The notes under the pieces are model-generated. The model was not told where the DNA came from and did not search any database. It worked only from the letters and a program-made list of their open reading frames with translations. Below, one piece after another: positions 5,597-54,172 of a DNA stretch of 64,000 nucleotides (positions within the stretch are counted from its first letter, which is position 1; every line of letters starts with the position of its first letter). Both the position numbers and the translations under genes were made by a program. Source of the stretch: an uncultured virus (IMG/VR IMGVR_UViG_3300035698_035306) (taxonomy: Duplodnaviria > Heunggongvirae > Uroviricota > Caudoviricetes). The stretch lies in IMG/VR virus record IMGVR_UViG_3300035698_035306; one strand, written 5' to 3'.

Positions 5597-6745
5597 ATGA
5601 GAAAAACTAAAGAAGCTTCAATTATATTACCAGAAAATCCATTCTGGGAAGTGTTCAAGAGATTTGGACGAGATGAGTTCATTGCACTTGTCATTAATAT
5701 ATTAGGGACTGTTATTTTAGCAGCCATTCTATCTGCTTCTTCAGTGCCAATCGAAACTAAGGTATTACTATTAGCATTCGTCGGTCCTGTCATAGAGAAG
5801 ATTGGGTTCTACCCTGGTCACTTCTGGGAAGCACGCAAGACATTTAATTCTATACCACTCAAGCGAAGAAAACCTTTCAAGTTCTACAGAAAACGAGCTA
5901 TCAAAAGAGGTACTAAATCTTTAATACAAGATATACTTATTCATGACCCAGTTTATATTATCTTAATGTATGTTGGTTTAAATATGTATGCAGGTACTCC
6001 TGAATGGATTCTAGCATTTTTAAGCTTTATCATTGCAGTAGTCATCGTATCATTTATTGAAGTCGGTATGAATGAATTACTGTACAGAGGTTTAATAGCA
6101 AGAATGAAACTTAGGGGCTTTGATAAAGAGAGTTATTATGAAGCTCGTTTTAAGATTGACACATCAAGAAAACCTGAAGATGTTATAAAAATATTCTCTG
6201 AAGAGTTTAATTTACCTAATATCAATAAACACTCTTACGTAGACTATTACTATCAGACTAAGTTACCTATGTTCTCAGGTAGAACACCGAAATTAAGACT
6301 TAGAAAGAGATGTAATAAGAAGCATGATGGTTTTATTCAGACTGCTCAGTTAGTTTATACCCGTGCAGGTGAATGGAGTAAGAATGCATTAAGTCAGTAC
6401 AGGTATTTTCCATTAAGAAAAGATAAGATGTACGCATTCCTTGACCAAGATATGCCTCAGAACATTGATGAAATAAAAGATGAGAAGGTTAAGAGATTTT
6501 TCGCTAAGAATATTGAATTAGAGACACATACGACCGTTAAATTTGATAGATGGGTAGCATTTAACTCTGCAACTATATTGATGTCAGTTGATTACATTGA
6601 AAATGGTGAAGAAAATCCTCATTATTTAGTAGAATTGAAAACATACCATGATAAGGCACTCCTTAAAGAGGCCATGAGATATATGATGGATGAATTTACA
6701 GTAGTGCAAACAACTAAAGATAAGTATAATATCATTAATGAGTAG
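5597..6745 (+). CDS. membrane protein with C-terminal CYTH/VTC-like (triphosphate tunnel) domain
   Basis: 3-4 hydrophobic N-terminal segments; YYEARF, YVDYYY, LRLRK, KFDRW, MSVD, LVELK, terminal KDKY in CYTH/VTC motif order. Confidence 0.6.
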   Translation: MRKTKEASIILPENPFWEVFKRFGRDEFIALVINILGTVILAAILSASSVPIETKVLLLAFVGPVIEKIGFYPGHFWEARKTFNSIPLKRRKPFKFYRKRAIKRGTKSLIQDILIHDPVYIILMYVGLNMYAGTPEWILAFLSFIIAVVIVSFIEVGMNELLYRGLIARMKLRGFDKESYYEARFKIDTSRKPEDVIKIFSEEFNLPNINKHSYVDYYYQTKLPMFSGRTPKLRLRKRCNKKHDGFIQTAQLVYTRAGEWSKNALSQYRYFPLRKDKMYAFLDQDMPQNIDEIKDEKVKRFFAKNIELETHTTVKFDRWVAFNSATILMSVDYIENGEENPHYLVELKTYHDKALLKEAMRYMMDEFTVVQTTKDKYNIINE

Positions 6746-32899: not shown

Positions 32900-34000
32900 A
32901 TGCATAAAACAATATTATTAGCAATCACAGGAGGCATCGCAGCATACAAAGCTGCAGATGTTATTTCTGGATTAAGAGCAAAAGGACATACAGTACATGT
33001 AATTACTACTGACAGTGCGCTTAAGTTTATTACACCTACAGTAATTGGTGCAATATCAGGAGGTCAATACATCACAGATGAAGACCCAAATCATATCATG
33101 CACATTAAGTTAGCACAAGAATGTGATTTATTTATGTGTCTACCTTGCACAGCCAATACAATGGCTAAATTTGCAAATGGTATGGCAGATAACTTCGTAA
33201 CTTCAACGTTCCTAGCACTGCCGAAAGATACGCCTAAAATTATTTGTCCTGCAATGAATACAAAGATGTGGACTAATTTAATAACTCAACAGAATTATTG
33301 GAAACTTAAATCATTTGAAAATCTTACAATGATAGACCCAGTTAAAGGTTTATTAGCTTGTGGAGATACAGGAATGGGGAAACTTCCTAAGCCTAGAGCA
33401 ATTGTTAATGAAGTTCATGGCATCTTAGATGACAGTCCTGCATGGGAATGGCCATTAGTATTAAGACCAGTAGGAACTACTAATGATAGCTATAGTTTTC
33501 TTCATATTGACTTAAACAGAGATGTTGAATTACCAATCTATCCTCATGTTGGAGCTTTTGGTGTTAAACGTAGACATGACAAACATAGAGGTGTAGACTT
33601 ATATGCTCCTGAAGGAACATTAGTCACTCCTGTCGAAGACGGTGTCGTAGTAATAGTAAGACCTTGGACAGGTAAAGACGCCAATTGTCCTTGGTGGGAA
33701 GATACTGAAGCAATTGGAATATTAGGTGAAAGTGGTTTAGTTTATTATGGAGAACTACGAGTTAATAATAATCTTAAACCAGGTATGAAAGTAGTCAAAG
33801 GAACTACGTGGTTAGGTAGAGTTATAAAAGTTCTTAAGAAAGATAAAGGTCGTCCAATGAGCATGTTACACCTTGAATTAAGAGAACCAGGATTTCTTAA
33901 GAATATTGATAAAGATTGGGAATTTAATCTGCCAAAAGGTTTACTTGACCCAACTCCCTATCTTAAGAGATGCATCGAAAAGTTGCCAAAAGCTTCATAA
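32900..34000 (+). CDS. coaC: phosphopantothenoylcysteine decarboxylase (CoaC, HFCD flavoprotein) fused to C-terminal M23 peptidase domain
   Basis: ITGGIAAYKA, HIKLA, PCTANTMAK, PAMNTKMW, LACGDTGMGKL; then HRGVDLYAPEGT, YGEL, MLHLEL, DPTPYL. Confidence 0.88.
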   Translation: MHKTILLAITGGIAAYKAADVISGLRAKGHTVHVITTDSALKFITPTVIGAISGGQYITDEDPNHIMHIKLAQECDLFMCLPCTANTMAKFANGMADNFVTSTFLALPKDTPKIICPAMNTKMWTNLITQQNYWKLKSFENLTMIDPVKGLLACGDTGMGKLPKPRAIVNEVHGILDDSPAWEWPLVLRPVGTTNDSYSFLHIDLNRDVELPIYPHVGAFGVKRRHDKHRGVDLYAPEGTLVTPVEDGVVVIVRPWTGKDANCPWWEDTEAIGILGESGLVYYGELRVNNNLKPGMKVVKGTTWLGRVIKVLKKDKGRPMSMLHLELREPGFLKNIDKDWEFNLPKGLLDPTPYLKRCIEKLPKAS

Positions 34001-34687: not shown

Positions 34688-35371
34688 ATGAAAATTTTAA
34701 TCACATCAGGTGGGACCAAAGAATATATTGATGATGTAAGAGTATTAACAAATATCTCATCAGGAGCTCTTGGTGCTAAAATAGCTGAAAGCTTTACATG
34801 GGACAATCACGAAGTACATTACGTCTATACAAAAGGCTCAGTATTACCACGCAACGATTTTAAAGATAAGACAAGGCTATTCTTCCATGTAGTTAAAGAT
34901 GTTGTATCACTTGTCCACAAGACTGCAGAGCTTATTCCAGAAATGGATGTTATAATTCATGCAATGGCAGTAAGTGATTTTGGATTTTCTCCTTGTAAAG
35001 AGAAGCTTAAGTCTAACAGTACTGAAGACTTTATTAATTCACTAAGAGACAGAATTACAGTTAACCCTAAGGTATTATCACATATGCGTGATTGGAACCC
35101 TAAAGCAGTCCTTATCAGCTTTAAGTTTGAAGTAGGTAAGACTAATGAAGACTTACTTGATATTGCTCGTAAATCTCTAATAGCTAATCGATGTGATATT
35201 GTAGTTGCAAATGATAAGACTGAGATGGTTAAAGAAGGTAAGCATATCGCATATATTCAAGATGTTTACAAGAACGTTATTAAATGTGATAGTAAAGAAA
35301 ACATTGCAAGACAACTTGTAAGAATCGTAAATGAAACAAAAGGAAATAGAACCATAGAAATATCAAGATGA
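34688..35371 (+). CDS. coaB: phosphopantothenate-cysteine ligase (stand-alone CoaB)
   Basis: ITSGGTKEYIDDVRVLTNISSG, HAMAVSDF, NPKVL, SFKFE, VVAND. Confidence 0.92.
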   Translation: MKILITSGGTKEYIDDVRVLTNISSGALGAKIAESFTWDNHEVHYVYTKGSVLPRNDFKDKTRLFFHVVKDVVSLVHKTAELIPEMDVIIHAMAVSDFGFSPCKEKLKSNSTEDFINSLRDRITVNPKVLSHMRDWNPKAVLISFKFEVGKTNEDLLDIARKSLIANRCDIVVANDKTEMVKEGKHIAYIQDVYKNVIKCDSKENIARQLVRIVNETKGNRTIEISR

Positions 35372-36950: not shown

Positions 36951-37301
36951 ATGAGAAATTTAGTTTTAATATTATTCTTAATACTCGCAATGACTTGCAA
37001 TTCACAAGTAATGCAAGTTCGTACACCCTATGACACTACTGCTAATATCACTATAGTTGCTGTTCATGATAAGTCTGAAGCAGATATGATTGTGATGATA
37101 GTAGATAAAAAATCTCAGTGTGGTCATGATGTATACTGGAAACTAACATCAAAGAATAAAAGGAGATATGACTACACAATTCGATTCGTAACCAGAAATG
37201 ATAAACATGATTTAAAGATTTACTTTACAATCAACTCTGATGAACCCCGTGTCATGAGTGAATATCTCAAATCTGGTTTAGAACAATATAAACCAAAATA
37301 A
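36951..37301 (+). CDS. secreted protein, DUF6150-like
   Basis: signal peptide; repeated V.....AD/DL.IYF pattern. Confidence 0.4.
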   Translation: MRNLVLILFLILAMTCNSQVMQVRTPYDTTANITIVAVHDKSEADMIVMIVDKKSQCGHDVYWKLTSKNKRRYDYTIRFVTRNDKHDLKIYFTINSDEPRVMSEYLKSGLEQYKPK

Positions 37302-37303
37302 AC

Positions 37304-37334
37304 TTTGGGGTGTCAAACAAATTTGATACTTTAG
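37304..37334 (+). promoter_or_regulatory. Bacteroidota-type promoter (GTCA class), near-leaderless
   Basis: TTTG-N19-TACTTTAG; ATG 37342. Confidence 0.85.
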
Positions 37335-37341
37335 CACTATT

Positions 37342-38511
37342 ATGAAACAGATACTATTAAATAGAACCGATTTTAAAGAGCAAGTTTTCAAAAGAGACAA
37401 TCATACATGTCTATTTTGTGACAAACCAGCAGTCGATGCACATCATATAATCGATAGGTCATTATGGAGTGACGGAGGTTATTATGTTGATAATGGTGCA
37501 TCATTATGTACTGAACATCACTTAGCAGCTGAAAAGACTCTTATATCTGCACATAACTTAAGGCAGTTAGCAGGTATTGATAATGCAATTTACCCCCAAA
37601 ACTTATCAAGAAATGAATTTGTTGTAGACTATGACAAATGGGGTAACCCTATCTTAAAGAATGGTAGACGTTTAAAAGGTTACTTATTCTATAAAGATAA
37701 TGTTCAGAAGATGCTTAAACAAACAATAGAACATGGTGCATTTGATAAGCCATTTGATATGTTAGTAGATAAGTACCCTCGTACCTATCACTTACTTAAT
37801 TCTCCAGGAACAACTTCAGATGATAGAATTGCAAAGACTTGTAATAAAGTTCTTACTCAAGGCAACGTTATTACTGAAAAGTTAGATGGTGAGAATACTT
37901 CTATGAGTGAATATGGATTATTTGCAAGAAGTCGTACTGAACCTACTAAAAATCCTTGGGCCCAGTGGCTTAAGCAACGTTGGGAAAGTATCAAGAGAGA
38001 TTTAAAAGACTTTGACCTTGAAATATGCGGTGAGAATATGTACGGAGAACATTCGATCGTTTACTCTGGCTTACAAGAACACTTCTATGTATTTGGAATG
38101 AGGAATATGAAGCACGATGTATTTTTAAGTTGGGAAGAAACTGAATACTTTGCAGAACTATTTGACTTTCAGATGGCCCCAGTATTAATGAAGTGTGATG
38201 GATTAACATACGAAGAATTAGTAGATAATATTGATTTATTTATGAGTCAACCATCAGAACTAAATGATAGTAAGTACTGGACTACACCTAAAGAAGGTAT
38301 AGTAATAAGAATCAAAGATGAATTTCCAAATGACATGTTCTATAACTCCGTATACAAATATGTAAGAGCAAAACATGTTAAGACTGGAGAACACTGGGCT
38401 AAGAACTGGCACAGAGCATATTTACATCACGAATTAGAAAGATTACAACATGACAAATTCCCTCAAATATTCGAAGATAGAGTACGAGAAGGACTAATAA
38501 CATTATCATGA
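37342..38511 (+). CDS. HNH domain fused to ATP-dependent RNA/DNA ligase domain
   Basis: N-term RDNHTCLFC..DAHH..NGASLC..HH; ligase KYPRTYHL..SPG, motif I EKLDGEN, GEN, FYVF, EGIVIR, KYVR. Confidence 0.88.
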   Translation: MKQILLNRTDFKEQVFKRDNHTCLFCDKPAVDAHHIIDRSLWSDGGYYVDNGASLCTEHHLAAEKTLISAHNLRQLAGIDNAIYPQNLSRNEFVVDYDKWGNPILKNGRRLKGYLFYKDNVQKMLKQTIEHGAFDKPFDMLVDKYPRTYHLLNSPGTTSDDRIAKTCNKVLTQGNVITEKLDGENTSMSEYGLFARSRTEPTKNPWAQWLKQRWESIKRDLKDFDLEICGENMYGEHSIVYSGLQEHFYVFGMRNMKHDVFLSWEETEYFAELFDFQMAPVLMKCDGLTYEELVDNIDLFMSQPSELNDSKYWTTPKEGIVIRIKDEFPNDMFYNSVYKYVRAKHVKTGEHWAKNWHRAYLHHELERLQHDKFPQIFEDRVREGLITLS

Positions 38512-39617
38512 TAGATTTTATAAAACATATACAGACCGTAATTCCTGAAATTATACCTTATTTTCATGCGATGAAAGGTTGTCAACAAGACAAGACATAT
38601 CATCCAGAAGGAGATGTTTGGATTCATACTAAACTTGTCCTGGAAGAATTTTATAATGAATGGGATTTATATACACCGAAGGCAAGAAAGATAATGGCTT
38701 ACGCTATCATATTTCATGACATAGGGAAACCTTATTGTTCTGAAAAGATTGATGGTCATATTCGTTCACATGGACATTCAAGAATTGGCTATCATATTGC
38801 ATTAGAATTACTAGATAAGGCATTAGCAGCTGGTGATATTGAATACGATGACATGCTTGAAATTGCAAATCTTGTTTTATTTCATGGTAAGCCACCTTGG
38901 GTATCTGAAAAGTCAACAAGAGATGCTGAATATGAAGTTATTAAATTGAGTCAAGATTGTCATATTTGGTTACTTTGGAAGCTATCTACATATGATATCA
39001 AAGGTAGAACTGCTAAAGATGTACCTGAAATGCTCGAGAAGGTTGAATATTTCATGATGTTAGCTGAAGAATTAAACTGTCTCCATTTAGATTATAAATT
39101 CTACAATGACTACAATAAATTTGGTTACTTAGTTAAACACAATTATCACCATACTGACCAAGCTTACGATGATAGTAAAGGTCATGTTTATCTAATGGTT
39201 GGATTACCAGGTACAGGAAAAGATACTTACATTAAAGAGAACTTATCAATATGGCCTATAGTCAGCTTAGATGATATTAGAGCTGAACTTAAAATCAAAC
39301 CGACCGGTAATCAAGGTAAAGTTATTCAAGCAGCTAAAGAGAAAGCTAAAGTGTTTATGAGAGAAGGTGCAACCTTTACTTGGAATGCTACAAACACATC
39401 TAAGTTAATTAGAGATGGTTTGATTTCTTTATTCACTCAATATAACTATCGCATACATATTCATTATATTCATAATACGTTTGATAAAATCCTCGAACAG
39501 AACAAACAAAGAGAAGCTCAGGTACCTGAAAAGGTTATCAAGAAACTATTTAGAAATATTGATATCCCTAAAAACTCTGAGGCCCATATTGTAGTTCACA
39601 TTGATAAAACGAAATAA
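38508..39617 (+). CDS. HD-Pnk: HD phosphoesterase + P-loop polynucleotide kinase
   Basis: HPEGDVWIHT, FHDIGKP; GLPGTGKDT, SLDDIR, WNATN; ATGA overlap with the ligase. Confidence 0.88.
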   Translation: MIDFIKHIQTVIPEIIPYFHAMKGCQQDKTYHPEGDVWIHTKLVLEEFYNEWDLYTPKARKIMAYAIIFHDIGKPYCSEKIDGHIRSHGHSRIGYHIALELLDKALAAGDIEYDDMLEIANLVLFHGKPPWVSEKSTRDAEYEVIKLSQDCHIWLLWKLSTYDIKGRTAKDVPEMLEKVEYFMMLAEELNCLHLDYKFYNDYNKFGYLVKHNYHHTDQAYDDSKGHVYLMVGLPGTGKDTYIKENLSIWPIVSLDDIRAELKIKPTGNQGKVIQAAKEKAKVFMREGATFTWNATNTSKLIRDGLISLFTQYNYRIHIHYIHNTFDKILEQNKQREAQVPEKVIKKLFRNIDIPKNSEAHIVVHIDKTK

Positions 39618-39629
39618 ACTGTGGAATAC

Positions 39630-39660
39630 TTTGGAACCTGAAAATTAATTATTACTTTAG
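39630..39660 (+). promoter_or_regulatory. Bacteroidota-type promoter (CTGA class)
   Basis: TTTG-N19-TACTTTAG. Confidence 0.85.
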
Positions 39661-39684
39661 TACCAAACAATAAAACTTAGAATC

Positions 39685-40365
39685 ATGTATTTATTTTATG
39701 ACACAGAAACAAATGGTCTACCTAAAAACGCATCACTATCTCATGTTGATGTTGATAACTGGCCTCGATTAGTTTCAATTACATGGGTTCTTCAAGATGA
39801 AGAGAAGAATGTTGTTGAAGAAGAATCATTCATAATCAAACCTGATGGCTGGACTATCCCACAAAGACTTACAGATTATGTCCACGGAATATCTGATGAA
39901 CAAGCTGAAAAAGAAGGTGTACCTATCAAAGTAGTTCTAAACGAATTTATGAAAGCTTTGTGGAGAGCAGACTATGTTGTAGGTCATAATATCAGATTTG
40001 ACCGTAAAGTAGTTGCAGCAGAGATGTACAGGTATTTATTTGGTTATCATTATGATGAAGTACTTTATGGCACTCGCTTTAGAGATACAATGCACGCTTC
40101 TCGCTTACACGTTAAAGCTCTTAATAAAAAAGGTGGAATTAAATTCCCTAAGTTACAAGAAATGTACGTAAAGATTTTTGGTTCTGAATTTGAAAATGCT
40201 CACGACGCTACTGCAGATGTTCATGCAACTGCAGACTGCTTCTGGAAATTAGATGAAATGGGAATTATAGACGATTACTATTTAACACATAGCGATTTGT
40301 CAGAAAAGTTTAAACCAAGAGCTGAAATTAAGATAGATATATTCAACTTACCAGAAGTAGAATAG
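39685..40365 (+). CDS. DEDDh 3'-5' exonuclease (DnaQ-like)
   Basis: YDTETNG, GHNIRFD, DTM, AHDATADV. Confidence 0.9.
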   Translation: MYLFYDTETNGLPKNASLSHVDVDNWPRLVSITWVLQDEEKNVVEEESFIIKPDGWTIPQRLTDYVHGISDEQAEKEGVPIKVVLNEFMKALWRADYVVGHNIRFDRKVVAAEMYRYLFGYHYDEVLYGTRFRDTMHASRLHVKALNKKGGIKFPKLQEMYVKIFGSEFENAHDATADVHATADCFWKLDEMGIIDDYYLTHSDLSEKFKPRAEIKIDIFNLPEVE

Positions 40366-40395
40366 AAAGTTTATTGCGTTTAATCTGAGGAATAC

Positions 40396-40426
40396 TTTGG
40401 TTCCTGAAGTTTTATTGATACTTTAG
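40396..40426 (+). promoter_or_regulatory. Bacteroidota-type promoter (CTGA class)
   Basis: TTTG-N19-TACTTTAG then tcttgtaattaa. Confidence 0.85.
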
Positions 40427-40449
40427 TCTTGTAATTAAAAGAAAACGAT

Positions 40450-40935
40450 ATGACATCAATAGACCTTTATACAGACGCATCTTACGCACAGCACAAAGCA
40501 CCTAAACATTTCGGAATAGGAATGTTCATGATTGACTACGCTGATGATGAAAAAGAATACCAACATGGTCAAAGAGTACAATTCGCTCATATCACAAATA
40601 AAATCAAGCAAAAATATCAACACAAAATCAAAGGTAACCTCACTTTATTTGAATTACATGCTATCGTTGAAGGTATTAGATGGACTATTAAACAAACAAA
40701 TAAGAGAGAAAGTATCGAAGAGATTAGAATTTATACTGACAGTTTAAATGTCGTAGAATGCTATCACGGTTTAGTAGAACACCCGATGTTTACAGGTTAT
40801 ACCAAATCTTTAAAACACCAAATCGAAGGTATTGAAAAAACTAACAATCTTAAAATTACATTATCACATATCAAAGCACACTGCGGAGTATATGGAAACA
40901 CTAAAGCTGACAAATTAGCTAAAAAGAGAAACTAA
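40450..40935 (+). CDS. rnhA: ribonuclease HI
   Basis: YTDAS, ELHAI, IYTDS, HIKAHCG..GN..ADKLAK. Confidence 0.88.
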   Translation: MTSIDLYTDASYAQHKAPKHFGIGMFMIDYADDEKEYQHGQRVQFAHITNKIKQKYQHKIKGNLTLFELHAIVEGIRWTIKQTNKRESIEEIRIYTDSLNVVECYHGLVEHPMFTGYTKSLKHQIEGIEKTNNLKITLSHIKAHCGVYGNTKADKLAKKRN

Positions 40936-40938
40936 AGC

Positions 40939-40969
40939 TTTTAATTTGCGAATAATTTAATTAGATTTG
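40939..40969 (+). promoter_or_regulatory. Bacteroidota-type promoter (TGCG class), probably leaderless
   Basis: TTTT-N19-TAGATTTG; ATG 40973. Confidence 0.7.
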
Positions 40970-40972
40970 AAT

Positions 40973-41731
40973 ATGACAAAAATAGATTCAACTGTTGTAG
41001 TAACAGACATCAGAAATTTCACTGGACTTTCTATCCTCTTTGAAGATAGAGGTAGTGATATTTTCATGGATTTTATGGAAGACTATTATGAACATCACAT
41101 GCTTCTTGCAAAAGAAATTAGCACTGAAGATGTTTATGTAAGTACTACAGGTGATGGCATTATTACCATTTTTATGGGTGAAAATCATGCATTTGAAGGT
41201 TATGCTTATGCTCTTTCAATGAATAGAGTACTTACTGAAATATGTGGTAAATTTAGCAAAGATGCAGGTGTAAAATTGTCATTTGGAATTGGAGCTGATT
41301 CAGGTTTCATTAAAAAAATTGATACAAGTAAGAGAGGTATCAGTATAAACACATATCTAGGCCCTGTAATTAACAGGACTGCAAGAATTGAAAGTCTTAC
41401 AAAGGGCTATCACTTTACTAATATGGCAATAGGTGGAAACCTTTACAAGTTAATCCTATCTTTAATCGTACCTGATTCAATAGAAATATTTGAAAACGTT
41501 ACAAATTATGATGACTTACTTGAAGATAACCCAAGATTAGTATCAAAGAGTAAAAGGTTATTAGTTTATTATGGCGGAACAAATGTTCTTAAAGGTTTAG
41601 AAAGTGAAACACTTCCAATCTTTAGATTAATTAAAAAGCTCGCTGATAACGATTTCTACTTTTGGAGAACAATCATTACATTAATTGGCAAAGAAAAAGC
41701 TAAAAAAATATTAAGCTTAGACGAAGAATGA
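40973..41731 (+). CDS. class III nucleotide (adenylate/guanylate-type) cyclase
   Basis: TDIRNFT, TGDG, FGIGADSG, TYLGPVINRTARIE. Confidence 0.88.
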   Translation: MTKIDSTVVVTDIRNFTGLSILFEDRGSDIFMDFMEDYYEHHMLLAKEISTEDVYVSTTGDGIITIFMGENHAFEGYAYALSMNRVLTEICGKFSKDAGVKLSFGIGADSGFIKKIDTSKRGISINTYLGPVINRTARIESLTKGYHFTNMAIGGNLYKLILSLIVPDSIEIFENVTNYDDLLEDNPRLVSKSKRLLVYYGGTNVLKGLESETLPIFRLIKKLADNDFYFWRTIITLIGKEKAKKILSLDEE

Positions 41732-42249
41732 TAAAATTAAAAGGTAAAATATTATTTAATCCTGCGGATTTAACTAAGAAACATAAAGGGCAAGCATCTT
41801 GGAAAAAGATGGCACTCATTATGTTCGAAGGGGATGTGTCGGAATACTTCTCATGGTTCATTGAGAAAAGATATAACCTTAAGCTGAATAGACCACTTAG
41901 AGGAGCTCACGTTAGTTTTATAAACGATTCATTGAATGACATGAAACAAGGCCTTATGACTGAACATGACGGCATATGTGAACTGAAATGGAAACAGTTA
42001 GCTAAGAAATGGGATGGTAAAGAAATTGAGGTTGTTTTAGACCCAGATGTTCGTTCAGATGGTGAACACTGGTGGTTTATAATTCCACAAGAAAGTAGAG
42101 ATTTAATACACGAAATTAGAGCAGAAGTAGGTTTAGGAAGACCATTCTTCGGCTTACACATGAGTATAGGTTATGCAAATAATAAGAACATAGCTCACTC
42201 AAAATACATTGTTAACTTAGCCACTAAGTACGGCGGCGATTATAATTAA
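41728..42249 (+). CDS. 2H phosphoesterase
   Basis: two HxS motifs (GAHVSF, GLHMSIG) about 83 aa apart; ATGA overlap with the cyclase. Confidence 0.75.
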   Translation: MIKLKGKILFNPADLTKKHKGQASWKKMALIMFEGDVSEYFSWFIEKRYNLKLNRPLRGAHVSFINDSLNDMKQGLMTEHDGICELKWKQLAKKWDGKEIEVVLDPDVRSDGEHWWFIIPQESRDLIHEIRAEVGLGRPFFGLHMSIGYANNKNIAHSKYIVNLATKYGGDYN

Positions 42250-42252
42250 AAT

Positions 42253-42627
42253 ATGACAGAAGATAAACTTTATTATGTCAAAGATTATCCTGAATTTGGG
42301 ATGATTAATTTGACTTGGGTAAGAAAGATAATACCAACTGGAAAAGAAGGCGATTATAAAATTTATATTGCATATGGAACTAAAGGTGGGTATTCTGATA
42401 CTTGGGAATTTGGTGCAAATAAAACAATGAGAGATGCAGTAATGCGATGTATGTTTGACCAATTACATTCAGTCTATACTGATGAGACTGAACTTGAAGC
42501 TGCAGTAGAAGAAATTGCTGAAGAAAGAAAAGGTGTTGAAGCAGAAGAAGCTTTGGAACATTTAGAAAAGAAACGCAAGTTTATTGACCCAACTGATTTG
42601 TCACAGTTCCCTGAAGTAAAAGTATAA
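42253..42627 (+). CDS. hypothetical protein ending DPxxLxxFPEVKV
   Basis: C-terminus shared with 43459-43782. Confidence 0.7.
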   Translation: MTEDKLYYVKDYPEFGMINLTWVRKIIPTGKEGDYKIYIAYGTKGGYSDTWEFGANKTMRDAVMRCMFDQLHSVYTDETELEAAVEEIAEERKGVEAEEALEHLEKKRKFIDPTDLSQFPEVKV

Positions 42628-43458
42628 TGAAGCTACCTTGGGATATGCCACAGAAGCGTAGGGTTAGAATACTCATACCAACTTTAATAGTTTGGGTGGG
42701 AAGTTTAATCTTACAGAACATTATTAAAGAGCCCATAACTATAGCTATTGCAGCTCTTAGTACATTATGGTTCCAAGCTTTTTCAATATTCATAATTTTT
42801 GATAACTCAAGGCAAACTCGAACTAATTTCCAACATGAAATTGATAGAGAAGAACAAAAGTATAGAAATTATCAAATACCAAAACCTGAACCTGAATCAG
42901 ATGGGTTCTCAAAAAATTATTAAATGGATTTAACAGAAGCAAAAGATATAGTGAGACAAATGTCATGTGGCTCAGTAGAAGCTACAATGAAACTACCTAA
43001 CACGCACCTTCATTCTGAAGCAATACGACAAGTATGTGCTGCAGCATGCTATGGCGATAAAGAAGCTCAAGGAGTTCAAACATGTATACCAGATGAGATG
43101 GCTTATATGGGCTTATATCCGCATATAATGGAGAAGATTGATATTATACCAGAAGGTAGTAATAAAAGGAATACTGAAATGTTGGATAAAATTTTCAAAG
43201 CAAGAAAAGAATATAAAGAAAGAAAGAATAAAGAATAATATGGAAACAATTCAAACAATAAGCATGTGGTTTATGTGTATACTGTGGCCACTTATGGGAT
43301 TAACATCAACAATAAGATTACTAATTCGAAATTCTACTTATTGGAGTAAATTTGAATGGGAAGGATTTATGTGGTTTTTAACATTAATCTTTAAATTAAT
43401 GTGAGGCCCATTTTGTTATTTCAATGATTTGTTTGTCCAAACTAAAGACAAAAACTAA

Positions 43459-43782
43459 ATGGAACAACTTACAGAACCTAAAGCAGAATTTCTCCACATG
43501 GAGAAGCAGAGTATTATTTTCAGAATTGAAGATATCGGAAGTGTATTCAGAACATATAAAACAGAAGGCAATAGTGTAAATCATTGTATTGAATTTTATA
43601 ATAGAGAAGATAAGTCAGTAGGTAAATGGCATTTTGCAGATGAAGAACAAACTTTAGATGCACTCACAATCATCAGAAATGCATTACCTTGTAAAGTAAT
43701 TAAGTTAGAAGAGCTTAAAGATGAGAGACGTAAGAATTACGACCCTTGTAATTTAGATAATTTCCCTGAAGTAAAAGTATAA
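43459..43782 (+). CDS. hypothetical protein ending DPxxLxxFPEVKV
   Basis: C-terminus shared with 42253-42627. Confidence 0.7.
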   Translation: MEQLTEPKAEFLHMEKQSIIFRIEDIGSVFRTYKTEGNSVNHCIEFYNREDKSVGKWHFADEEQTLDALTIIRNALPCKVIKLEELKDERRKNYDPCNLDNFPEVKV

Positions 43783-44187
43783 TGAGAGCTATAATAATTA
43801 AAGGTACTACAATTAACCTTGATAAGATGTTCGTGGTTACTAGATATGACGGTGACCATGATGAAGACGCGTCGAAACATACATTTATAATGAGAGTTAG
43901 GCCAACAAATTGCTAGAAAAATCATATATGATATGAGAAATTCTGAATTTGAAAATCCTGTAATACTCTTTAATTCATTTACTGAGAATTATGTTGGACA
44001 AAACCAAGAGTCTATATATAAAGGCGCTCATAGCATGCATAACCTTGATAGTTTGCAAACTAAGATTTCTATTACACCTAAATATTGTTTCATAGATAAG
44101 TCACATCATCTATGTACACCTTTATTAGCAAAGAGATTAGAATTAACGGTAGATGAAAATACAATAAAAACAAATAATTATGGCTAA
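43782..44187 (+). pseudogene. probable single gene split by a +1 frameshift near 43893
   Basis: MRAIIIKGTTINLDKMF...TFIM from TAATG-coupled ATG 43782; removing 1 nt joins ELGQQIARKIIYD-MRNSEF... (ORF 43933). Confidence 0.45.
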
Positions 44188-44388
44188 GAGCATTGAAATT
44201 AAAATCTGTACAGCATGTCCAAATCACTCATCAGAACGTGATTATACTGCAGACTCATTTGAGTACTGTGATAAATGGCTTTGTAAACATCCTGATGGTC
44301 CAAAAGAACCTGTCAGAAGATATGTAGATTGGAATGATAAAGCAACTGAGTTCATTCCAAAGGAATGCCCATTAAAAGATAAAGAATA

Positions 44389-45096
44389 ATGAACGCAAGA
44401 TTAGGATTAGAAAAAGGTGAAGTACGAAACATAATTGCACCTGTTGGAGAATATAAGACAATATATTGTCTCTCTACAATAAAAAAATATGTTGAAGCAG
44501 GTTACAATGTTATGTACTATTCAATTGAAAACAATACAAGTCATATTCAACAAAGACTTTTAGATAGTGGAATAAGATTAGGTAAAGCAAAACCGTTCTT
44601 CAGAACGTTACCATCACTTAATCTCACTGCTTTAAGAAAACAAGTTGAAATTGATATCAATAAGATTGCTAATGTGAAACTTGTTATCATTGAAGACATT
44701 AACCTTCTTATAAGCGATTATATTGGAATGAAAAGCTTTTTAGAAGATATAACTTGTATGTTGAAGTCAGCTGACATTGCTTGTCTATTTACAACACATG
44801 CCGCTAAGAATTATATCAACGGCCCAATCAATATAGAAGACATTAGACATTCAGCAGGAGCGATGCATATATGTGATACTGTATACGGAATTAAGTCTGT
44901 TAAAACAAGTGATAAGATTTCTTTCTGGCAATGGTTATTCAATATCTTTAGAAATAAAAAGAACAGAGTAAAACCCAATACTGAAAAGTCAATTTACTTA
45001 AGTGTTCTTAAGAATAGATATGGCGAAAGTAATCAAACATGTAAACTAGATGTTGATGAAAAGAAATTAGAATTTAACTTTAAACAAGCAGAATAA
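44389..45096 (+). CDS. degenerate DnaB/RecA-fold ATPase domain
   Basis: IIAPVGEYKT (degenerate Walker A), YSIEN, VIIED, DIRHS, LKNRYG. Confidence 0.7.
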   Translation: MNARLGLEKGEVRNIIAPVGEYKTIYCLSTIKKYVEAGYNVMYYSIENNTSHIQQRLLDSGIRLGKAKPFFRTLPSLNLTALRKQVEIDINKIANVKLVIIEDINLLISDYIGMKSFLEDITCMLKSADIACLFTTHAAKNYINGPINIEDIRHSAGAMHICDTVYGIKSVKTSDKISFWQWLFNIFRNKKNRVKPNTEKSIYLSVLKNRYGESNQTCKLDVDEKKLEFNFKQAE

Positions 45097-46385: not shown

Positions 46386-49298
46386 ATGAAAAAACTCTTA
46401 GTAATATTCTTATTCTTTCTTATAAGTCTTACTGGATTTTCACAAGGAACTGATTGTGCAAGTGCTGACCCATTTTGTACAGGAACTACTTATGATTTCC
46501 CATTATCAACAAGTACTACAGCTCAGACTGGGCCTGATTACGATTGTTTACTCACACAACCTAACCCAGTATGGTACTATCTACAAATAGACCAACCCGG
46601 CGATATCACAATTACGATGAATGCCGGTAGTGATATTGATTTTGTAGCATGGGGACCATTTGCATCTCAAGCTGTTATGTGTAGTAATCTTACTTCAGCT
46701 AATGTTGTAGATTGTAGTTTCTCAATAGCATCATCAGAAGACTGTGACATAACAGGAGCTTTACCTGGTGAATTTTATATGATGATGATAACAAACTACG
46801 CAGGTATAACACAGAATGTCACATTTTCACAAACAAGTGGATTAGGAAGTACAGACTGTTCTATTATATGCGAAGTCAATGCAGGTACTGACCAATCAAT
46901 TTGTATTGGAGACCAAGCAACTTTAGGAGGTTCGCCTGTTTATAATGGTGGTTTGCAACCTGTCACTTACCTTTGGGACAATGCTGCTACTATAACTACA
47001 CTTGCAACTGATTCGACACCTACTGTAGAACCCTTAATTACAACAACTTATACAGTTACTATGACTACTGATGACGGTTGCACGTCTACTGATGATGTTC
47101 TCATTACAGTGATAGACCCTACTGCTAGTTTTATATCAAGTGTAGACCAGTGCTTAACTGGGAACTTATTTACTTTTACAAATACAGGAGATACTGGACC
47201 AGGAATTACATGGGACTGGACATTACCTAATTCAAATACATTAACATCTACTAATGAAAATGTTGTTAACGTATCATGGGCTAATCCAGGAACTTATATA
47301 ATAACCCAAACTGTTACTATAGGTACATGTACAGATGATAATACAGATATAATAGAAGTATTTGAAATGCCAACAGTAACTATGTCTACAGTAGATGAGA
47401 TATGTGCAGGAGCTTGTGATGGAAGTGCTACTGCAAATCCATTAAACGGCACTCCTGGTTATACTTATCAATGGTTAGGAATAGCTGATATCACACAAAC
47501 TGTGAATGCTTTATGTGCTAACAATTACTTCGTAACAGTAACAGACTTAAATGGTTGCACAGCAACTAATGCTGGTACTGTAAGTTCTGCACAACCTATA
47601 GATATTGATAATGTTACAGTGACTGATGTTCTTTGTAATGGTGATAATACTGGTGGATTTTTAATACAAGCTTCAGGTGGATGCACTCCTATTACTTATA
47701 ATAATGGAATTAGCAATACGACTGGCATATTTACTAACTTACTTGCTGGGAGTTACGATGTAACGATTACTGATTGTAATTCATGCTCAGTTATTGAAAC
47801 TGTAATCGTAGATGAACCTGAGTTTCCTTTAAGTGCAATCATGACACATACAGATTTACTTTGTTTTGATGATAATTTAGGAACAGCTACTGCAAATGTC
47901 TCAGGTGGAACAATTGGTTATACTTATCAATGGTTACCTTCTGTAGGTATAGCAGGTACAATTATAAATGTACCAGCTGGGAATTATCAAGTTACTATAA
48001 CTGATGCTAACAATTGTCAAATCTTTGATAATGTAGAAGTTAATACACCATCTGAAGTATTTCTTGCAGTTTCACAAAGTGGTGAAATTGTATGTTTCAA
48101 CCAGGACGTTGAAATAAATGCATCGACAACAGGTGGAGTAGCTCCTTATATTTATTACATTAATGGTGTTTACACTGCTATGCCGTTTGTGACCAATCCA
48201 ACAGGATTTGAAACTTACATTATATATGCTGAAGATATCAATGGCTGTACAAGTAATATTGAAGTTGTTGACTTAGATGTCTTTGACAATTTGAATTTTT
48301 CTATCGTGTCAACACCTGCAGATGTTTGTTTAGGTGACCCTGTTACTATTTCATGTATCACATCAGGTGGAACTGGTGGTCCATATCAAATATCATTTAA
48401 CGGGAATATTGTTAATGTTCCTTTTACTTACTGGCCAAATCTCAATGAATCTGTAACTTTAACAGCTACTGATTACTGTTCTACAGCTTCATCTACTGTC
48501 GATATTGATGTTCATATATTACCTACACCTCAATTTTCTACTGATATTATACATGGTTGTGAACCACTTACAGTACACTTCGATGCATATTCAGCTTTCC
48601 CAAATGAAACATATAGATGGGTATTTGGAGATGAATCACAGGGGTATGGTATGACAGCTACTCATGAATTTGATAATTATGGTATGTATGACATTACTCT
48701 TATGGTTACTGATGAATACGGCTGTTCTAATAACATCAACTACACTAATTACATTACTGTATATGAGAACCCTGACGCAAGATTTTATGTAACACCTTCT
48801 AATGCAAGTATAATTGACCCAGTAATACAATTTGATAATAATAGCCAGAATAATTACTGGAATTATTGGACTTTTGGTGATGGAGATACATCAATGACAC
48901 TTAATCCAGTCCATACTTATAATGAAGTTGGAGATTATATGGTAGAATTAAAAGTTGTATCAATTCATAATTGTAGAGATTCAGCTATGTCACAAATTAT
49001 AATAACTGACATCACTACAGTATACTTTGCTTCTGCATTTAGTCCAGATGGTGATGGCATTAATGATTTCTTTGGTGCAGTCGGTGAGAATATAACACCA
49101 ACTGGATTTGGCTTATGTATTTATGATAGATGGGGAGAAGTTATCTTCGAAAGCTCAGACATTGATAATAAATGGGATGGTAAAGCAAAGAATGGAATGA
49201 AGACTGTTCAAATTGGAGTTTATACTTACACTTGTAATTTTATAGATGTATACGGTGTTGCAAGAGAATACGCTGGAACAGTAACAGTTATAAGATAA
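46386..49298 (+). CDS. T9SS type-B substrate: SprB repeats + PKD domains + gliding-motility CTD
   Basis: signal peptide; GGT.GYTYQW..G.Y.VT.TD.N.C repeats; W.FGD..H...G.Y...L.V PKD; CTD FSPDGDGINDFF..IYDRWGE..WDG..GVY.Y..GTVTVIR. Confidence 0.92.
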   Translation: MKKLLVIFLFFLISLTGFSQGTDCASADPFCTGTTYDFPLSTSTTAQTGPDYDCLLTQPNPVWYYLQIDQPGDITITMNAGSDIDFVAWGPFASQAVMCSNLTSANVVDCSFSIASSEDCDITGALPGEFYMMMITNYAGITQNVTFSQTSGLGSTDCSIICEVNAGTDQSICIGDQATLGGSPVYNGGLQPVTYLWDNAATITTLATDSTPTVEPLITTTYTVTMTTDDGCTSTDDVLITVIDPTASFISSVDQCLTGNLFTFTNTGDTGPGITWDWTLPNSNTLTSTNENVVNVSWANPGTYIITQTVTIGTCTDDNTDIIEVFEMPTVTMSTVDEICAGACDGSATANPLNGTPGYTYQWLGIADITQTVNALCANNYFVTVTDLNGCTATNAGTVSSAQPIDIDNVTVTDVLCNGDNTGGFLIQASGGCTPITYNNGISNTTGIFTNLLAGSYDVTITDCNSCSVIETVIVDEPEFPLSAIMTHTDLLCFDDNLGTATANVSGGTIGYTYQWLPSVGIAGTIINVPAGNYQVTITDANNCQIFDNVEVNTPSEVFLAVSQSGEIVCFNQDVEINASTTGGVAPYIYYINGVYTAMPFVTNPTGFETYIIYAEDINGCTSNIEVVDLDVFDNLNFSIVSTPADVCLGDPVTISCITSGGTGGPYQISFNGNIVNVPFTYWPNLNESVTLTATDYCSTASSTVDIDVHILPTPQFSTDIIHGCEPLTVHFDAYSAFPNETYRWVFGDESQGYGMTATHEFDNYGMYDITLMVTDEYGCSNNINYTNYITVYENPDARFYVTPSNASIIDPVIQFDNNSQNNYWNYWTFGDGDTSMTLNPVHTYNEVGDYMVELKVVSIHNCRDSAMSQIIITDITTVYFASAFSPDGDGINDFFGAVGENITPTGFGLCIYDRWGEVIFESSDIDNKWDGKAKNGMKTVQIGVYTYTCNFIDVYGVAREYAGTVTVIR

Positions 49299-51587: not shown

Positions 51588-52058
51588 ATGATAACGAATA
51601 GTAAATATGTATTCTTTTGGGCTGGAGAGTTCTCCAACTGGCACAACGCTAAAATTGAATACAAGGGTGAAAAGTTTGCAAACACAGAGCAAGCTTATAT
51701 GTGGGAAAAAGCCCTCCATTTTGATGACTATGAAATTGCAGAACTTATTTTAAATGAACCTAATCCTAAAGAGAACAAGAAATTAGGTAGACAAGTAAAA
51801 GGATTTAATGCAGCTGAATGGTTAAATGTATCGTTTGATTTAATGCTTGAAATTAATCGAGCTAAATATAGTCAACACGAAAGTCTTAAATGGCAATTGA
51901 TTAATACAGGTGATAGATTACTTGTAGAAGCAAGCCCATTTGATGAAATATGGGGTATAGGATTAACAGCTGCAGAAGCAGTTAATACACCTGAAGAAGA
52001 ATGGCCTGGAATGAACCTTCTAGGTAAATGTTTAACTAAATTAAGAGGAGAAATTTAA
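51588..52058 (+). CDS. NADAR (YbiA-like) family protein
   Basis: FSNW, EQAYM..KA..F.D, K.LGR.V, K.SQ, LVEASP.D.IWGIG, GMNLLG. Confidence 0.92.
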   Translation: MITNSKYVFFWAGEFSNWHNAKIEYKGEKFANTEQAYMWEKALHFDDYEIAELILNEPNPKENKKLGRQVKGFNAAEWLNVSFDLMLEINRAKYSQHESLKWQLINTGDRLLVEASPFDEIWGIGLTAAEAVNTPEEEWPGMNLLGKCLTKLRGEI

Positions 52059-52661: not shown

Positions 52662-53273
52662 ATGAAATTAGTTGGAATAACTGGAAGTATCGGTGCAGGT
52701 AAGAGTTACATTGGTAATTTAATCGGAGAACTAGGTGGATATGTCTATAATATGGATGACCATGTTAAATATTTACAAGAAACTGACCCATGGCTTAGAG
52801 AAGAAATGATTGAAATGTTCGGGGCAGATATCTATACAGATGAAGGCCTTGACAGAAAGAAAGTCGGTTCAATTATATTTCAAGACCCAGCTAAATTGAA
52901 GAAGATTGAAGATATGATAAGAGGTCCAATTGAAAAAGACCTCTATTGTACTGCTTACCATGTAAAACATACACTGAAATATAACGTAATGTTCATCGAG
53001 AATGCAATACTTTACGAAACAGGACAGTATAAACGTATGGACCATGTTTTAATGGTTAATGCACCTCAAAAACTTAGAATGGAAAGAGTTACAGAAAAGC
53101 GTGGAATGTCTGAAGAAGATTTCAAACAAAGAGATGCTATTCAAATTGACTTTCCAACAAAAGCAAATGCAATGACTAGTGCAGGTATTGAATGGACTCA
53201 TATATGGAATGCGCCTGATTTACCAAACCTTAAGAAAATGATTAAAGATATTTATATTAAATTTTCAAAGTAA
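52662..53273 (+). CDS. coaE: dephospho-CoA kinase
   Basis: VGITGSIGAGKS, D, LDRKKVG.IIF.D, AILYE, V.AP...R..R...R....R...Q. Confidence 0.88.
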   Translation: MKLVGITGSIGAGKSYIGNLIGELGGYVYNMDDHVKYLQETDPWLREEMIEMFGADIYTDEGLDRKKVGSIIFQDPAKLKKIEDMIRGPIEKDLYCTAYHVKHTLKYNVMFIENAILYETGQYKRMDHVLMVNAPQKLRMERVTEKRGMSEEDFKQRDAIQIDFPTKANAMTSAGIEWTHIWNAPDLPNLKKMIKDIYIKFSK

Positions 53274-54172
53274 TGAGTGCAAAAATGAAAGTAATACAAG
53301 AGACTGTAGATGAAGTATTTAACGATGCATTTGGTAGTACACCTCTTACTAAACGACTTGAAGATATTGAAGGTGAAGCAAGAGAGCTTTGTCAATTCAC
53401 AGACCTTAAGAATCTGAAAGAAGAAGCAGGAGACTTACTTGCAACAACATTGATGCTTTGTAATGAAGCAGGATGGGATGCAGAAGAATTAGTTTATAAT
53501 ACTTTGAAAAAAATCAATCGACGTATAGACCAATATAAAAGCCTTGGGCGTAAGACCAATGTTGCAATATTCGGTGGTGCTTTTAATCCTATCACTCTTG
53601 GTCATATTGAAATGGCTAAACTTGTATTAAATGCAAGTAAATGGGCTGATGAGGTTTGGTTAATGCCTACGAACATTCATATGTTTGGCAAGGATATGTT
53701 ACCATTTAAAGAACGTTATGAGATGTGTAAGATTGCTGCTCAGGCAGACGGAAGGATTAAAGTATGTGATTATGAACACAAACACAATCTGAAAGGTGAG
53801 ACATATCATCTACTGAATAAGATGGTACATGATTCTGAACTTGAGAATTATCGATTTGGTTTTATAGTTGGACAAGATAACGCAAATACACTTGACACTT
53901 GGTATAATGCTGATGAAGTAATTAAACTTGATGTTAAGTTTATTGTAGTTCCAAGAAAAGGAGTGCCGCGTGACCCAAATGTAACATGGTATCTACAGAA
54001 GCCTCATCAGTTCATAGCAGATGATGATAAAGTTAAATATGAAATATCTTCAACCATGGTTCGAACTGCTCTAAAGTCAGGTGACGAACCCACAATTAAA
54101 GATTGTATGGACTCAAACGTTACAAATTATATTTACGATAAGTTACTCTACCAAGATGAAAGCTCAATGTAA
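53273..54172 (+). CDS. nadD: MazG-like NTP pyrophosphatase fused to NadD/NMNAT nucleotidyltransferase
   Basis: E..E..EEAGDLL...K..RR (MazG); IFGGAFNPITLGH, R..M, T, GQDN...W, ISST.VR (NadD). Confidence 0.85.
   Translation: MSAKMKVIQETVDEVFNDAFGSTPLTKRLEDIEGEARELCQFTDLKNLKEEAGDLLATTLMLCNEAGWDAEELVYNTLKKINRRIDQYKSLGRKTNVAIFGGAFNPITLGHIEMAKLVLNASKWADEVWLMPTNIHMFGKDMLPFKERYEMCKIAAQADGRIKVCDYEHKHNLKGETYHLLNKMVHDSELENYRFGFIVGQDNANTLDTWYNADEVIKLDVKFIVVPRKGVPRDPNVTWYLQKPHQFIADDDKVKYEISSTMVRTALKSGDEPTIKDCMDSNVTNYIYDKLLYQDESSM

Follow-up and report, generated by a model that had tools for sequence, protein, structure and literature searches.

A class III nucleotidyl cyclase and a 2H phosphoesterase encoded side by side in a large uncultured phage: probably neighbours rather than a dedicated pair

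Does a bacteriophage encode both the enzyme that makes a cyclic-nucleotide signal and the enzyme that erases it? The question is raised by a 64,000-nt stretch of DNA from an uncultured virus of the Caudoviricetes (IMG/VR record IMGVR_UViG_3300035698_035306), the whole of which is referred to here as the window. Within it, a predicted nucleotide cyclase (open reading frame A, ORF A) overlaps a predicted 2H phosphoesterase (ORF B). A sequence-only reading of this locus had proposed that the two genes form a writer/eraser or counter-defence module behind a promoter of their own. Our analysis favors a different answer, which we hold with slightly better than even confidence: these are two genuine, probably active enzymes that are co-transcribed here and form no dedicated pair, with ORF A being a signal maker and ORF B serving RNA repair. 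The two genes are as follows.

40973..41731, + strand: ORF A, 252 aa, sensor-less class III nucleotidyl cyclase (start ATG; alternative start TTG at 40967)
41728..42249, + strand: ORF B, 173 aa, 2H phosphoesterase of family phrog_12204

Catalytic residues and folds of the two enzymes

ORF A contains the class III cyclase motifs that had been read from its sequence, namely D12 (TDIRNFTG), S57-T-T-G-D61 (STTGD) and N134-R-T-A-R138. In an alignment of 58 diverse full-length relatives (20-72% identity), D12, F16, G60, D61, G105, G111, N134 and R138 were invariant (58/58), and K207 of the late LKG motif was present in 47. The AlphaFold2 (AF2) model had a predicted local distance difference test (pLDDT) score of 95.7 and a predicted template-modeling (TM) score of 0.93. 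Foldseek returned 195 PDB matches to this model at an expect value (E) ≤1e-3, and every row at the top of the list was a class III cyclase; CyaB, Cya2, CyaC, soluble guanylate cyclase and photoactivated cyclases were matched at E 8e-11 to 1e-8, the best being CyaB (3r5g; E 8e-11, TM 0.74-0.76). All rows of the Atlas structure search belonged to PF00211. Relatives and model thus bear out the description of ORF A as a sensor-less class III cyclase with its catalytic residues in place, and judged by those residues and that model the enzyme looks catalytically intact.

Compared with the bacterial class III cyclases CyaB (3r5g), Cya2 (2w01) and CyaC (1wc1), ORF A has the same fold (E 8e-11 to 2e-9, TM 0.71-0.77) and the same metal-binding Asp pair, Asn-x-x-x-Arg and late Lys. 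It differs from them in being phage-encoded, in lacking a sensor or regulatory domain, in the Ser/Asn occupancy of a specificity position (see below), and in a helical insertion of about 40 residues before the last hairpin. Its score against Pfam Guanylate_cyc (PF00211; E 0.033, 14.2 bits) is also below the gathering cut-off of 21.9; the Pfam model covers only the first 144 residues because the insertion, at approximately residues 155-195 of the predicted structure, precedes the final beta-hairpin (LKG..P.FR).

No match to ORF A was found among the PHROGs, and a word-based search recovered eight relatives, ORF A itself included. Searched against PDB sequences, the family profile matched 2w01 best (E 1.6e-5), with the catalytic motifs aligned. 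Against 1.84 billion representatives, the profile gave 3755 matches at E ≤1e-3, of which 36 reached E ≤1e-30. These 36 were mostly full-length proteins of 250-290 aa, while the lower-ranked matches were classical multi-domain cyclases aligned at residues 5-150/170 only. The family ranges across huge phages and Myxococcota. ORF clustering placed three and two cyclase-family ORFs on one contig each at loci L124 and L127, respectively, and these may be paralogues.

The sequence-only reading had pointed out that the usual purine-selecting Lys/Glu is replaced by Ser in ORF A, and this was confirmed (S57, four residues before D61). Over the 58 relatives, the position is occupied by Asn in 24, Ser in 15 and Lys in 2, with Glu in none, so that Ser or Asn is found in 39 of 58. 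The second specificity position, seven residues before N134, is T127 in ORF A and Thr in 49 of 58 relatives; Thr at this position occurs in some adenylyl cyclases. Since the Lys/Glu position holds Ser or Asn, the usual code does not reveal which product ORF A would make. This substitution bears on substrate choice and not on fold membership.

In ORF B, the two HxS motifs were likewise confirmed as H61-V-S63 and H144-M-S146, with both histidines invariant in 41 of 41 aligned relatives. ORF B matched phrog_12204 (function unknown; E 8.7e-16), with no Pfam match at E ≤1 and no NCBIfam match. It has at least 319 relatives, nearly all unnamed, of which the best 120 share 51-68% identity with it; the family is large, strongly conserved and of big phages. 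Four of its members (P0071, P0096, P0099 and P0120) carry a C-terminal extension of about 100 residues matching Pfam DUF3696 (E 8e-8 to 7e-5).

The family profile had no match to PDB sequences at E ≤10, and Foldseek of the ORF B model (pLDDT 90.9) gave no PDB match at E ≤1e-3, its weak matches being one-sided, with Usb1 the best (E 5.4e-3). When the model was compared with 48,161 chains using VIA-align, rows 1-18 were all of 2H type (Z 7.1-4.8), an assignment helped by the titles of the entries, and Z fell to 3.0 after row 21. The set comprised MHV ns2, archaeal 2'-5' ligase/LigT-like proteins, Usb1, YjcG, CPDases, rotavirus VP3, AKAP18, Acb1, CNPase, the poxvirus cGAMP phosphodiesterase (PDE) and ASCC1. 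The conserved histidines and the 2H fold matches together uphold the identification of ORF B as a 2H phosphoesterase, and by its residues it looks catalytically intact. In both proteins the presence of these residues goes far past what chance would give.

Conservation of the pair and the surroundings of each gene

The association of the two genes is not conserved. Among the 35 cyclase loci other than the window, a 2H gene lies within the fetched flanks of one, and a full cyclase was found in 0 of 80 2H loci; with this conservation check having failed, the proposed writer/eraser or counter-defence module is not supported. The cyclase loci from the phage collection had a 2H gene within 4 kb in 0 of 5 cases, and of the 31 metagenome loci, one of which is the window, it was present in 1 of the 30 others (L118). 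Four whole records were searched, and both genes were present in two of them, 176 kb apart in LR745206.1 (cyclase homologue at 52.7 kb, 2H homologue at 229.2 kb) and 47 kb apart in record G002. In record G001 (168 kb, estimated to be 72% complete), a cyclase was present and no 2H gene was found; a further cyclase relative (55% identity) had no 2H gene in its 1.7-kb downstream flank (L099). The 2H family is also about 40 times commoner than the cyclase family, with at least 319 relatives against 8 in a like-for-like search. The cyclase and 2H genes therefore probably lie side by side without forming a dedicated couple for making and erasing a signal.

No conserved partner gene of the cyclase emerged from neighbour clustering of 36 cyclase loci, which revealed clade-level synteny only; an RNase H gene was near the cyclase in seven loci of one clade. 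Neighbouring ORFs of ORF A showed no cyclic nucleoside monophosphate (cNMP)-binding domain, TIR domain or large transmembrane effector (E ≤1 or E ≤1e-4), and nine Myxococcota homologues had variable, unrelated housekeeping neighbours and no effector. A small membrane protein was considered as a conserved partner and rejected, as a hydrophobic helix was predicted in 23 of 127 nearby ORFs versus 53 of 350 overall. Our literature searches for phage-encoded cyclases turned up no paper describing a stand-alone class III enzyme of this kind in a phage.

The cyclase thus looks like a free-standing signal maker and, because it has neither a sensor domain nor a conserved partner gene, probably makes a messenger that acts on the host. 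It is proposed that two copies of ORF A would form a head-to-tail dimer, as in other class III cyclases, in which D12 and D61 would hold two metal ions while N134, R138 and K207 would position the ribose and triphosphate of a nucleoside triphosphate (NTP). By analogy with the family, the 3'-OH would then attack the alpha-phosphate of the NTP to yield a 3',5'-cNMP. The base that would be chosen is not predictable, T127 of the second specificity position being alone in resembling adenylyl cyclases. The product would probably be a second messenger acting on the host during infection.

The surroundings of ORF B are of a different kind. In the window it closes a block of genes for an RNA ligase, an HD-kinase, an exonuclease and RNase H, with the RNA ligase and HD-kinase 2-4 kb upstream. 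The features flanking the two genes are listed here.

37342..38511, + strand: HNH endonuclease fused to an RNA ligase, opening the upstream nucleic-acid block (PF09414 E 4.6e-27; phrog_24030 E 5.7e-87)
38508..39617, + strand: HD phosphohydrolase domain plus P-loop kinase (AAA_33 E 4.6e-16; HD E 8e-4; phrog_505 polynucleotide kinase E 1.2e-13)
39685..40365, + strand: DEDD (RNase_T-type) exonuclease, with a promoter-like motif of 11 copies (see the last section) upstream at 39628
40450..40935, + strand: RNase H, with the 11-copy promoter-like motif upstream at 40394
40936..40972, + strand: gap of 37 bases before ORF A, with motif CTTTTAATTTGCG at 40938-40950 and TAGATTTG at 40962-40969
42253..42627, 42627..42923 and 42924..43238, + strand: three closely packed ORFs after ORF B, the second with two hydrophobic helices

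The HD-kinase protein is likely an RNA end-healing enzyme. ORF A and ORF B overlap by ATGA at 41728-41731. Of the 128 gene junctions in the window, 11 overlap by four bases and 26 by one base, so the ATGA overlap is not special, and since three more packed ORFs directly follow ORF B, the two genes do not constitute a two-gene unit. These three ORFs had no family match, and no cNMP-binding domain was found in them.

The RNA-repair surroundings recur across the 2H family. We analyzed the best 80 of 212 2H loci, many of which end at contig ends, so that the neighbour counts are lower bounds. A 237-aa 'hydrolase' (phrog_3668) was present in 63 of them, a 67-aa protein in 62, an RNA ligase (PF09414, phrog_548) in 50, a 190-aa protein in 43 and a PARP-domain protein (PF00644, E 3.5e-27) in 41. 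The usual order is RNA ligase, small gene (67 aa), PARP, hydrolase, 190-aa gene and 2H. The PARP-domain protein is approximately 430 aa long, and the block was seen in IMG/VR loci L008-L085. This RNA ligase-PARP-hydrolase-2H block of large phages may represent an undescribed RNA-repair module linked to nicotinamide adenine dinucleotide (NAD).

With the RNA-repair 2H enzymes (LigT/ThpR, 2H-SAK and the CPD of fungal and plant tRNA ligases), ORF B shares the fold and the two HxS/T motifs, and its family likewise sits with ATP-dependent RNA ligase and kinase genes. It differs from them in having no significant sequence match, in a conserved N-terminal extension of about 25 residues (G6..K26) that is found across the 41 aligned members of its family, and in the linkage of that family, in other phages, to the PARP-domain gene as well. 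Among the Pfam 2H models, 2H-SAK alone was matched within the family, by 4 of 41 members, weakly and below the cut-off (best E 0.0067), with ORF B itself unmatched. An Atlas feature search, which also leaned away from Acb1, gave 30 hits. Eighteen of them fell in one set of clusters, and in the cluster of that set that was shown, 11% of the members carry 2H-SAK; one further cluster had 2H-SAK on 96%, and one was an Acb1 cluster. Two published accounts describe 2H domains and ATP-dependent RNA ligases as widespread in large phages, note HNH-fused RNA ligases there, and predict that the 2H enzymes remove 2',3'-cyclic ends or act on ADP-ribose cyclic phosphate (PMC7824862, PMC9503650).

It is hypothesized that the two HxS/T motifs of ORF B hydrolyse a cyclic phosphate. 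The most likely substrate would be the 2',3'-cyclic phosphate end of cleaved RNA or tRNA, which we favor because the 2H family usually sits with an RNA ligase and, in the window, ORF B closes the RNA ligase/HD-kinase/exonuclease/RNase H block; ADP-ribose 1'',2''-cyclic phosphate and 2',3'-cNMP are other possible substrates. On the strength of this context and of the published views on jumbo-phage 2H enzymes, ORF B may act in RNA repair after host nuclease attack. The sequence-only reading had itself named, as one outcome that would overturn its proposal, a 2H protein that acts only on RNA ends and belongs to the RNA-repair block. The genomic half of that alternative stands, as the 2H family travels with RNA ligase genes.

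Weighing the competing explanations

Several observations weigh against reading the locus as a signal maker next to an unrelated RNA-repair enzyme. Some concern the pair. The ATGA overlap and the recurrent motif upstream of both genes mean that ORF A and ORF B are, at a minimum, expressed together in this phage. At locus L118 (1098..4795), a 2H gene lies 1.2 kb upstream of the cyclase, in the order opposite to that of the window: 2H, three small genes, cyclase and an RNA ligase different from the window's ligase. Locus L011 retains a decayed form of this order, with the 2H gene intact, the RNA ligase kept and the cyclase reduced to its last 59 residues (5707..5886). Both genes thus fall within 1.3 kb of each other, near an RNA ligase, in 2 of about 10 cyclase lineages (our own grouping of the clustered loci), more often than chance would bring about in genomes 150-600 kb long, though in phage genomes the accessory genes for nucleic-acid enzymes tend to cluster in any case. 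The nearest relative of ORF A (71% identity) and that of ORF B (68%), each with a longest contig of 3866 bases, may also keep the pair. A looser link between cyclase and 2H gene, inside an RNA-repair and counter-defence neighbourhood, may exist. Others concern the role of ORF B. About 11 of the 80 2H loci have no RNA ligase block nearby, and the region within 6 kb of the 2H gene contains no RNA ligase in phage G or the E. coli jumbo phages. The 80 loci are largely of one phage group, so that their synteny may be inherited rather than functional, and a 2H enzyme would be superfluous if, as it might, the window's HD-kinase heals both RNA ends already. Finally, the phage G homologue of ORF B, gp116 (32% identity), has been published as an Acb1, a label that the source derives from an HHpred match to 7T26 (PMC12484599).

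That label leads to the possibility that ORF B acts alone as an Acb1-like nuclease against CBASS or other cyclic oligonucleotides, with the cyclase unrelated, which we regard as unlikely. Like Acb1 (T4 gp57B, phage FBB1; PF23474), ORF B is a small phage-encoded 2H enzyme; its family is mostly confined to phages and very conserved, as anti-defence enzymes can be, and Acb1 (7t27) aligned to the ORF B model at Z 5.7 (root-mean-square deviation 3.1 over 106 residues). Yet MHV ns2 (Z 7.1) and a LigT-like protein (Z 6.5) outscored it, other 2H enzymes scored equally or higher, and in a BFVD search the Acb1 entries ranked only 24th and 31st (E 0.26-0.42). PF23474 was found on 67 of the 68 Acb1 relatives collected with T4 57B (NC_000866), whereas neither ORF B nor any of its 41 aligned relatives matched it, even at E ≤1 (0/41). 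Alignment of the two family profiles with hhalign gave a probability of 1.1% (E 0.048) and paired the second half of ORF B with the first half of Acb1, that is, the wrong halves. The genomic context differs as well, the usual neighbour of the 2H family being an RNA ligase. The Acb1 kinship suggested for ORF B was thus not borne out: by the Pfam, PHROG and profile-profile tests it is a separate family, and it shares a superfamily with Acb1, not a family. In the structural comparison that the sequence-only reading had called for, Acb1 and LigT-like proteins were among the fold matches of ORF B and PycC among those of ORF A, neither Acb1 nor PycC being the best.

The writer/eraser module itself, in which the cyclase would make a non-canonical or decoy cNMP and the 2H enzyme would degrade either that product or cyclic nucleotides of host immunity, the two jointly tuning or jamming such signaling, is in our judgement distinctly unlikely. 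It draws on the ATGA overlap and the common upstream motif, on the second lineage with both genes within 1.3 kb (L118, with its remnant in L011), on the Ser/Asn occupancy of the Lys/Glu position (39/58, against K in 2/58 and E in 0/58), on PADLOC PycC models being the best hidden Markov model (HMM) matches of ORF A (E 3.9e-7), and on the fact that some 2H enzymes cleave cyclic oligonucleotides, among which Acb1 (Z 5.7) and the poxvirus cGAMP PDE (Z 5.3) resemble ORF B. Set against this, 34 of the 35 other cyclase loci and all 80 2H loci lack the pair, distances of 47 kb and 176 kb separate the genes in the two records with both, the 2H family is roughly 40-fold commoner than the cyclase family in like-for-like searches, and L011 lost all but the last 59 cyclase residues while keeping 2H and RNA ligase. 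No 2H enzyme is known to hydrolyse 3',5'-cNMPs, which also counts against the module. A broader version is very unlikely: that a widespread huge-phage cyclase makes a nucleotide other than cAMP or cGMP that rewires host signaling or jams cNMP-based immunity and that at least two of its lineages brought it beside a 2H gene and an RNA ligase, where the esterase limits or converts the signal, nucleotide signaling and RNA repair together making up one counter-defence island. We consider it highly improbable that the cyclase supplies the signal for a Pycsar-like superinfection-exclusion system borne by the phage, with a nearby unrecognised gene as its effector. Like PycC (7r65, 8jsz), ORF A is a minimal class III cyclase that has no sensor and lacks the purine-selecting Lys/Glu. 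It matched four PADLOC PycC models (E 3.9e-7 to 6.5e-3, for models without a curated cut-off), the best of them ahead of Pfam Guanylate_cyc (E 0.033), and the Pycsar cyclases 8jsz and 7r65 were among its fold matches (E 3-4e-8). A two-helix membrane ORF lies two genes downstream (42627..42923), and a preprint reports a complete Pycsar system carried by one phage (10.64898/2026.05.02.722434). Against these stand the lack of an adjacent effector in the window or the 35 related loci (no cNMP-binding, TIR or large transmembrane effector in neighbouring ORFs or among the conserved neighbours of the 36 loci), the absence of any membrane-protein excess near the cyclase (23/127 vs 53/350), the variable, non-defence neighbours of the Myxococcota homologues, and a fold match to Pycsar cyclases that is weaker (ranks 34 and 42) than that to ordinary class III cyclases. 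The Pycsar hint in the sequence-only reading thus has some basis in the HMM matches, which PycC models top. The reading of a signal-making cyclase beside an RNA-repair 2H enzyme remains the one we prefer.

Start signals, the wider window and implications

The pair had been placed directly behind its own promoter, and this was not confirmed as stated. A sigma-70 scan of 37000..44500 performed at chance level, with 38 sites against 38.3 expected and none within the gap at 40936..40972. The gap does contain a motif, CTTTWWANTTGCG at 40938, that occurs in three exact copies in the window, each just upstream of a gene, the other two gene starts being at 1417 and 51552; allowing one mismatch there are six copies against 1.69 expected, a number reached in 0 of 100 shuffles. 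Further along the gap, TAGATTTG at 40962-40969 fits TAnnTTTG, the consensus of the Bacteroidota -7 box, and ends three bases before the ATG of ORF A. A start signal of phage or Bacteroidota type, not sigma-70, in this gap is plausible but unproven. Of 14 sequencing runs that contain the stretch, none is listed as RNA.

A second intergenic motif, ACTTTGGNNNCTGA-(8-16)-TACTTTW, was found in 11 copies on the + strand against 0 expected, always shortly upstream of a gene. Its positions are listed below.

3009, 6761, 7754, 25206, 25921, 27952, 39628, 40394, 54803, 55358 and 56968, + strand: ACTTTGGNNNCTGA-type motif

It is the stronger of the two motifs and stands ahead of the RNA ligase region, the exonuclease and RNase H, but not of the cyclase. 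It is probably the main promoter class of the phage. It resembles the Bacteroidota -33/-7 consensus of TTTG and TAnnTTT-like boxes. Together with a 970-aa protein (46386..49298) that combines SprB and PKD repeats with a CHU_C type IX secretion signal, this motif suggests a Bacteroidota host.

The window is densely packed with genes, all on the + strand, and no tRNA genes were found in it. The best relatives of its proteins come from an uncultured phage record of 635 kb and from IMG/VR contigs as long as about 425 kb, for which reason we regard the window as a piece of a large phage; a DNA search of positions 40000-43000 against 50,697 phage records gave no match. Elsewhere the window encodes a NADAR domain protein (ADP-ribose processing; 51588..52055, E 1.1e-44) and a set of coenzyme A (CoA) pathway genes (32900..34000, 34688..35371, 52662..53273 and 53273..54172), comprising a Flavoprotein (CoaC-like), a DFP C-terminal domain (CoaB-like), a dephospho-CoA kinase and a cytidylyltransferase-like protein fused to MazG. 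Three of 133 ORFs, namely the DEDD exonuclease (39685..40365) and two ORFs of unknown function (42253..42627 and 43459..43782), share a C-terminal tail (..NLPEVE, ..DLSQFPEVKV and ..NLDNFPEVKV), a tail that may dock all three onto one partner, for example a replication or repair factor.

For the 2H family, with its at least 319 relatives and no Pfam model of its own, one homologue is in print as 'Acb1' although the family fails the Acb1 profile tests and usually neighbours RNA ligase genes, and knowing the substrate would either confirm that name or put it right in hundreds of phage genomes. The cyclase family is the most interesting piece of the locus, and with 36 clusters at E ≤1e-30 in the profile search it is not rare. 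Research in the field has centred on hosts that make cyclic-nucleotide signals and on phages that destroy or sponge them; an active cyclase here would mean that a bacterial virus produces a cyclic-nucleotide messenger of its own.

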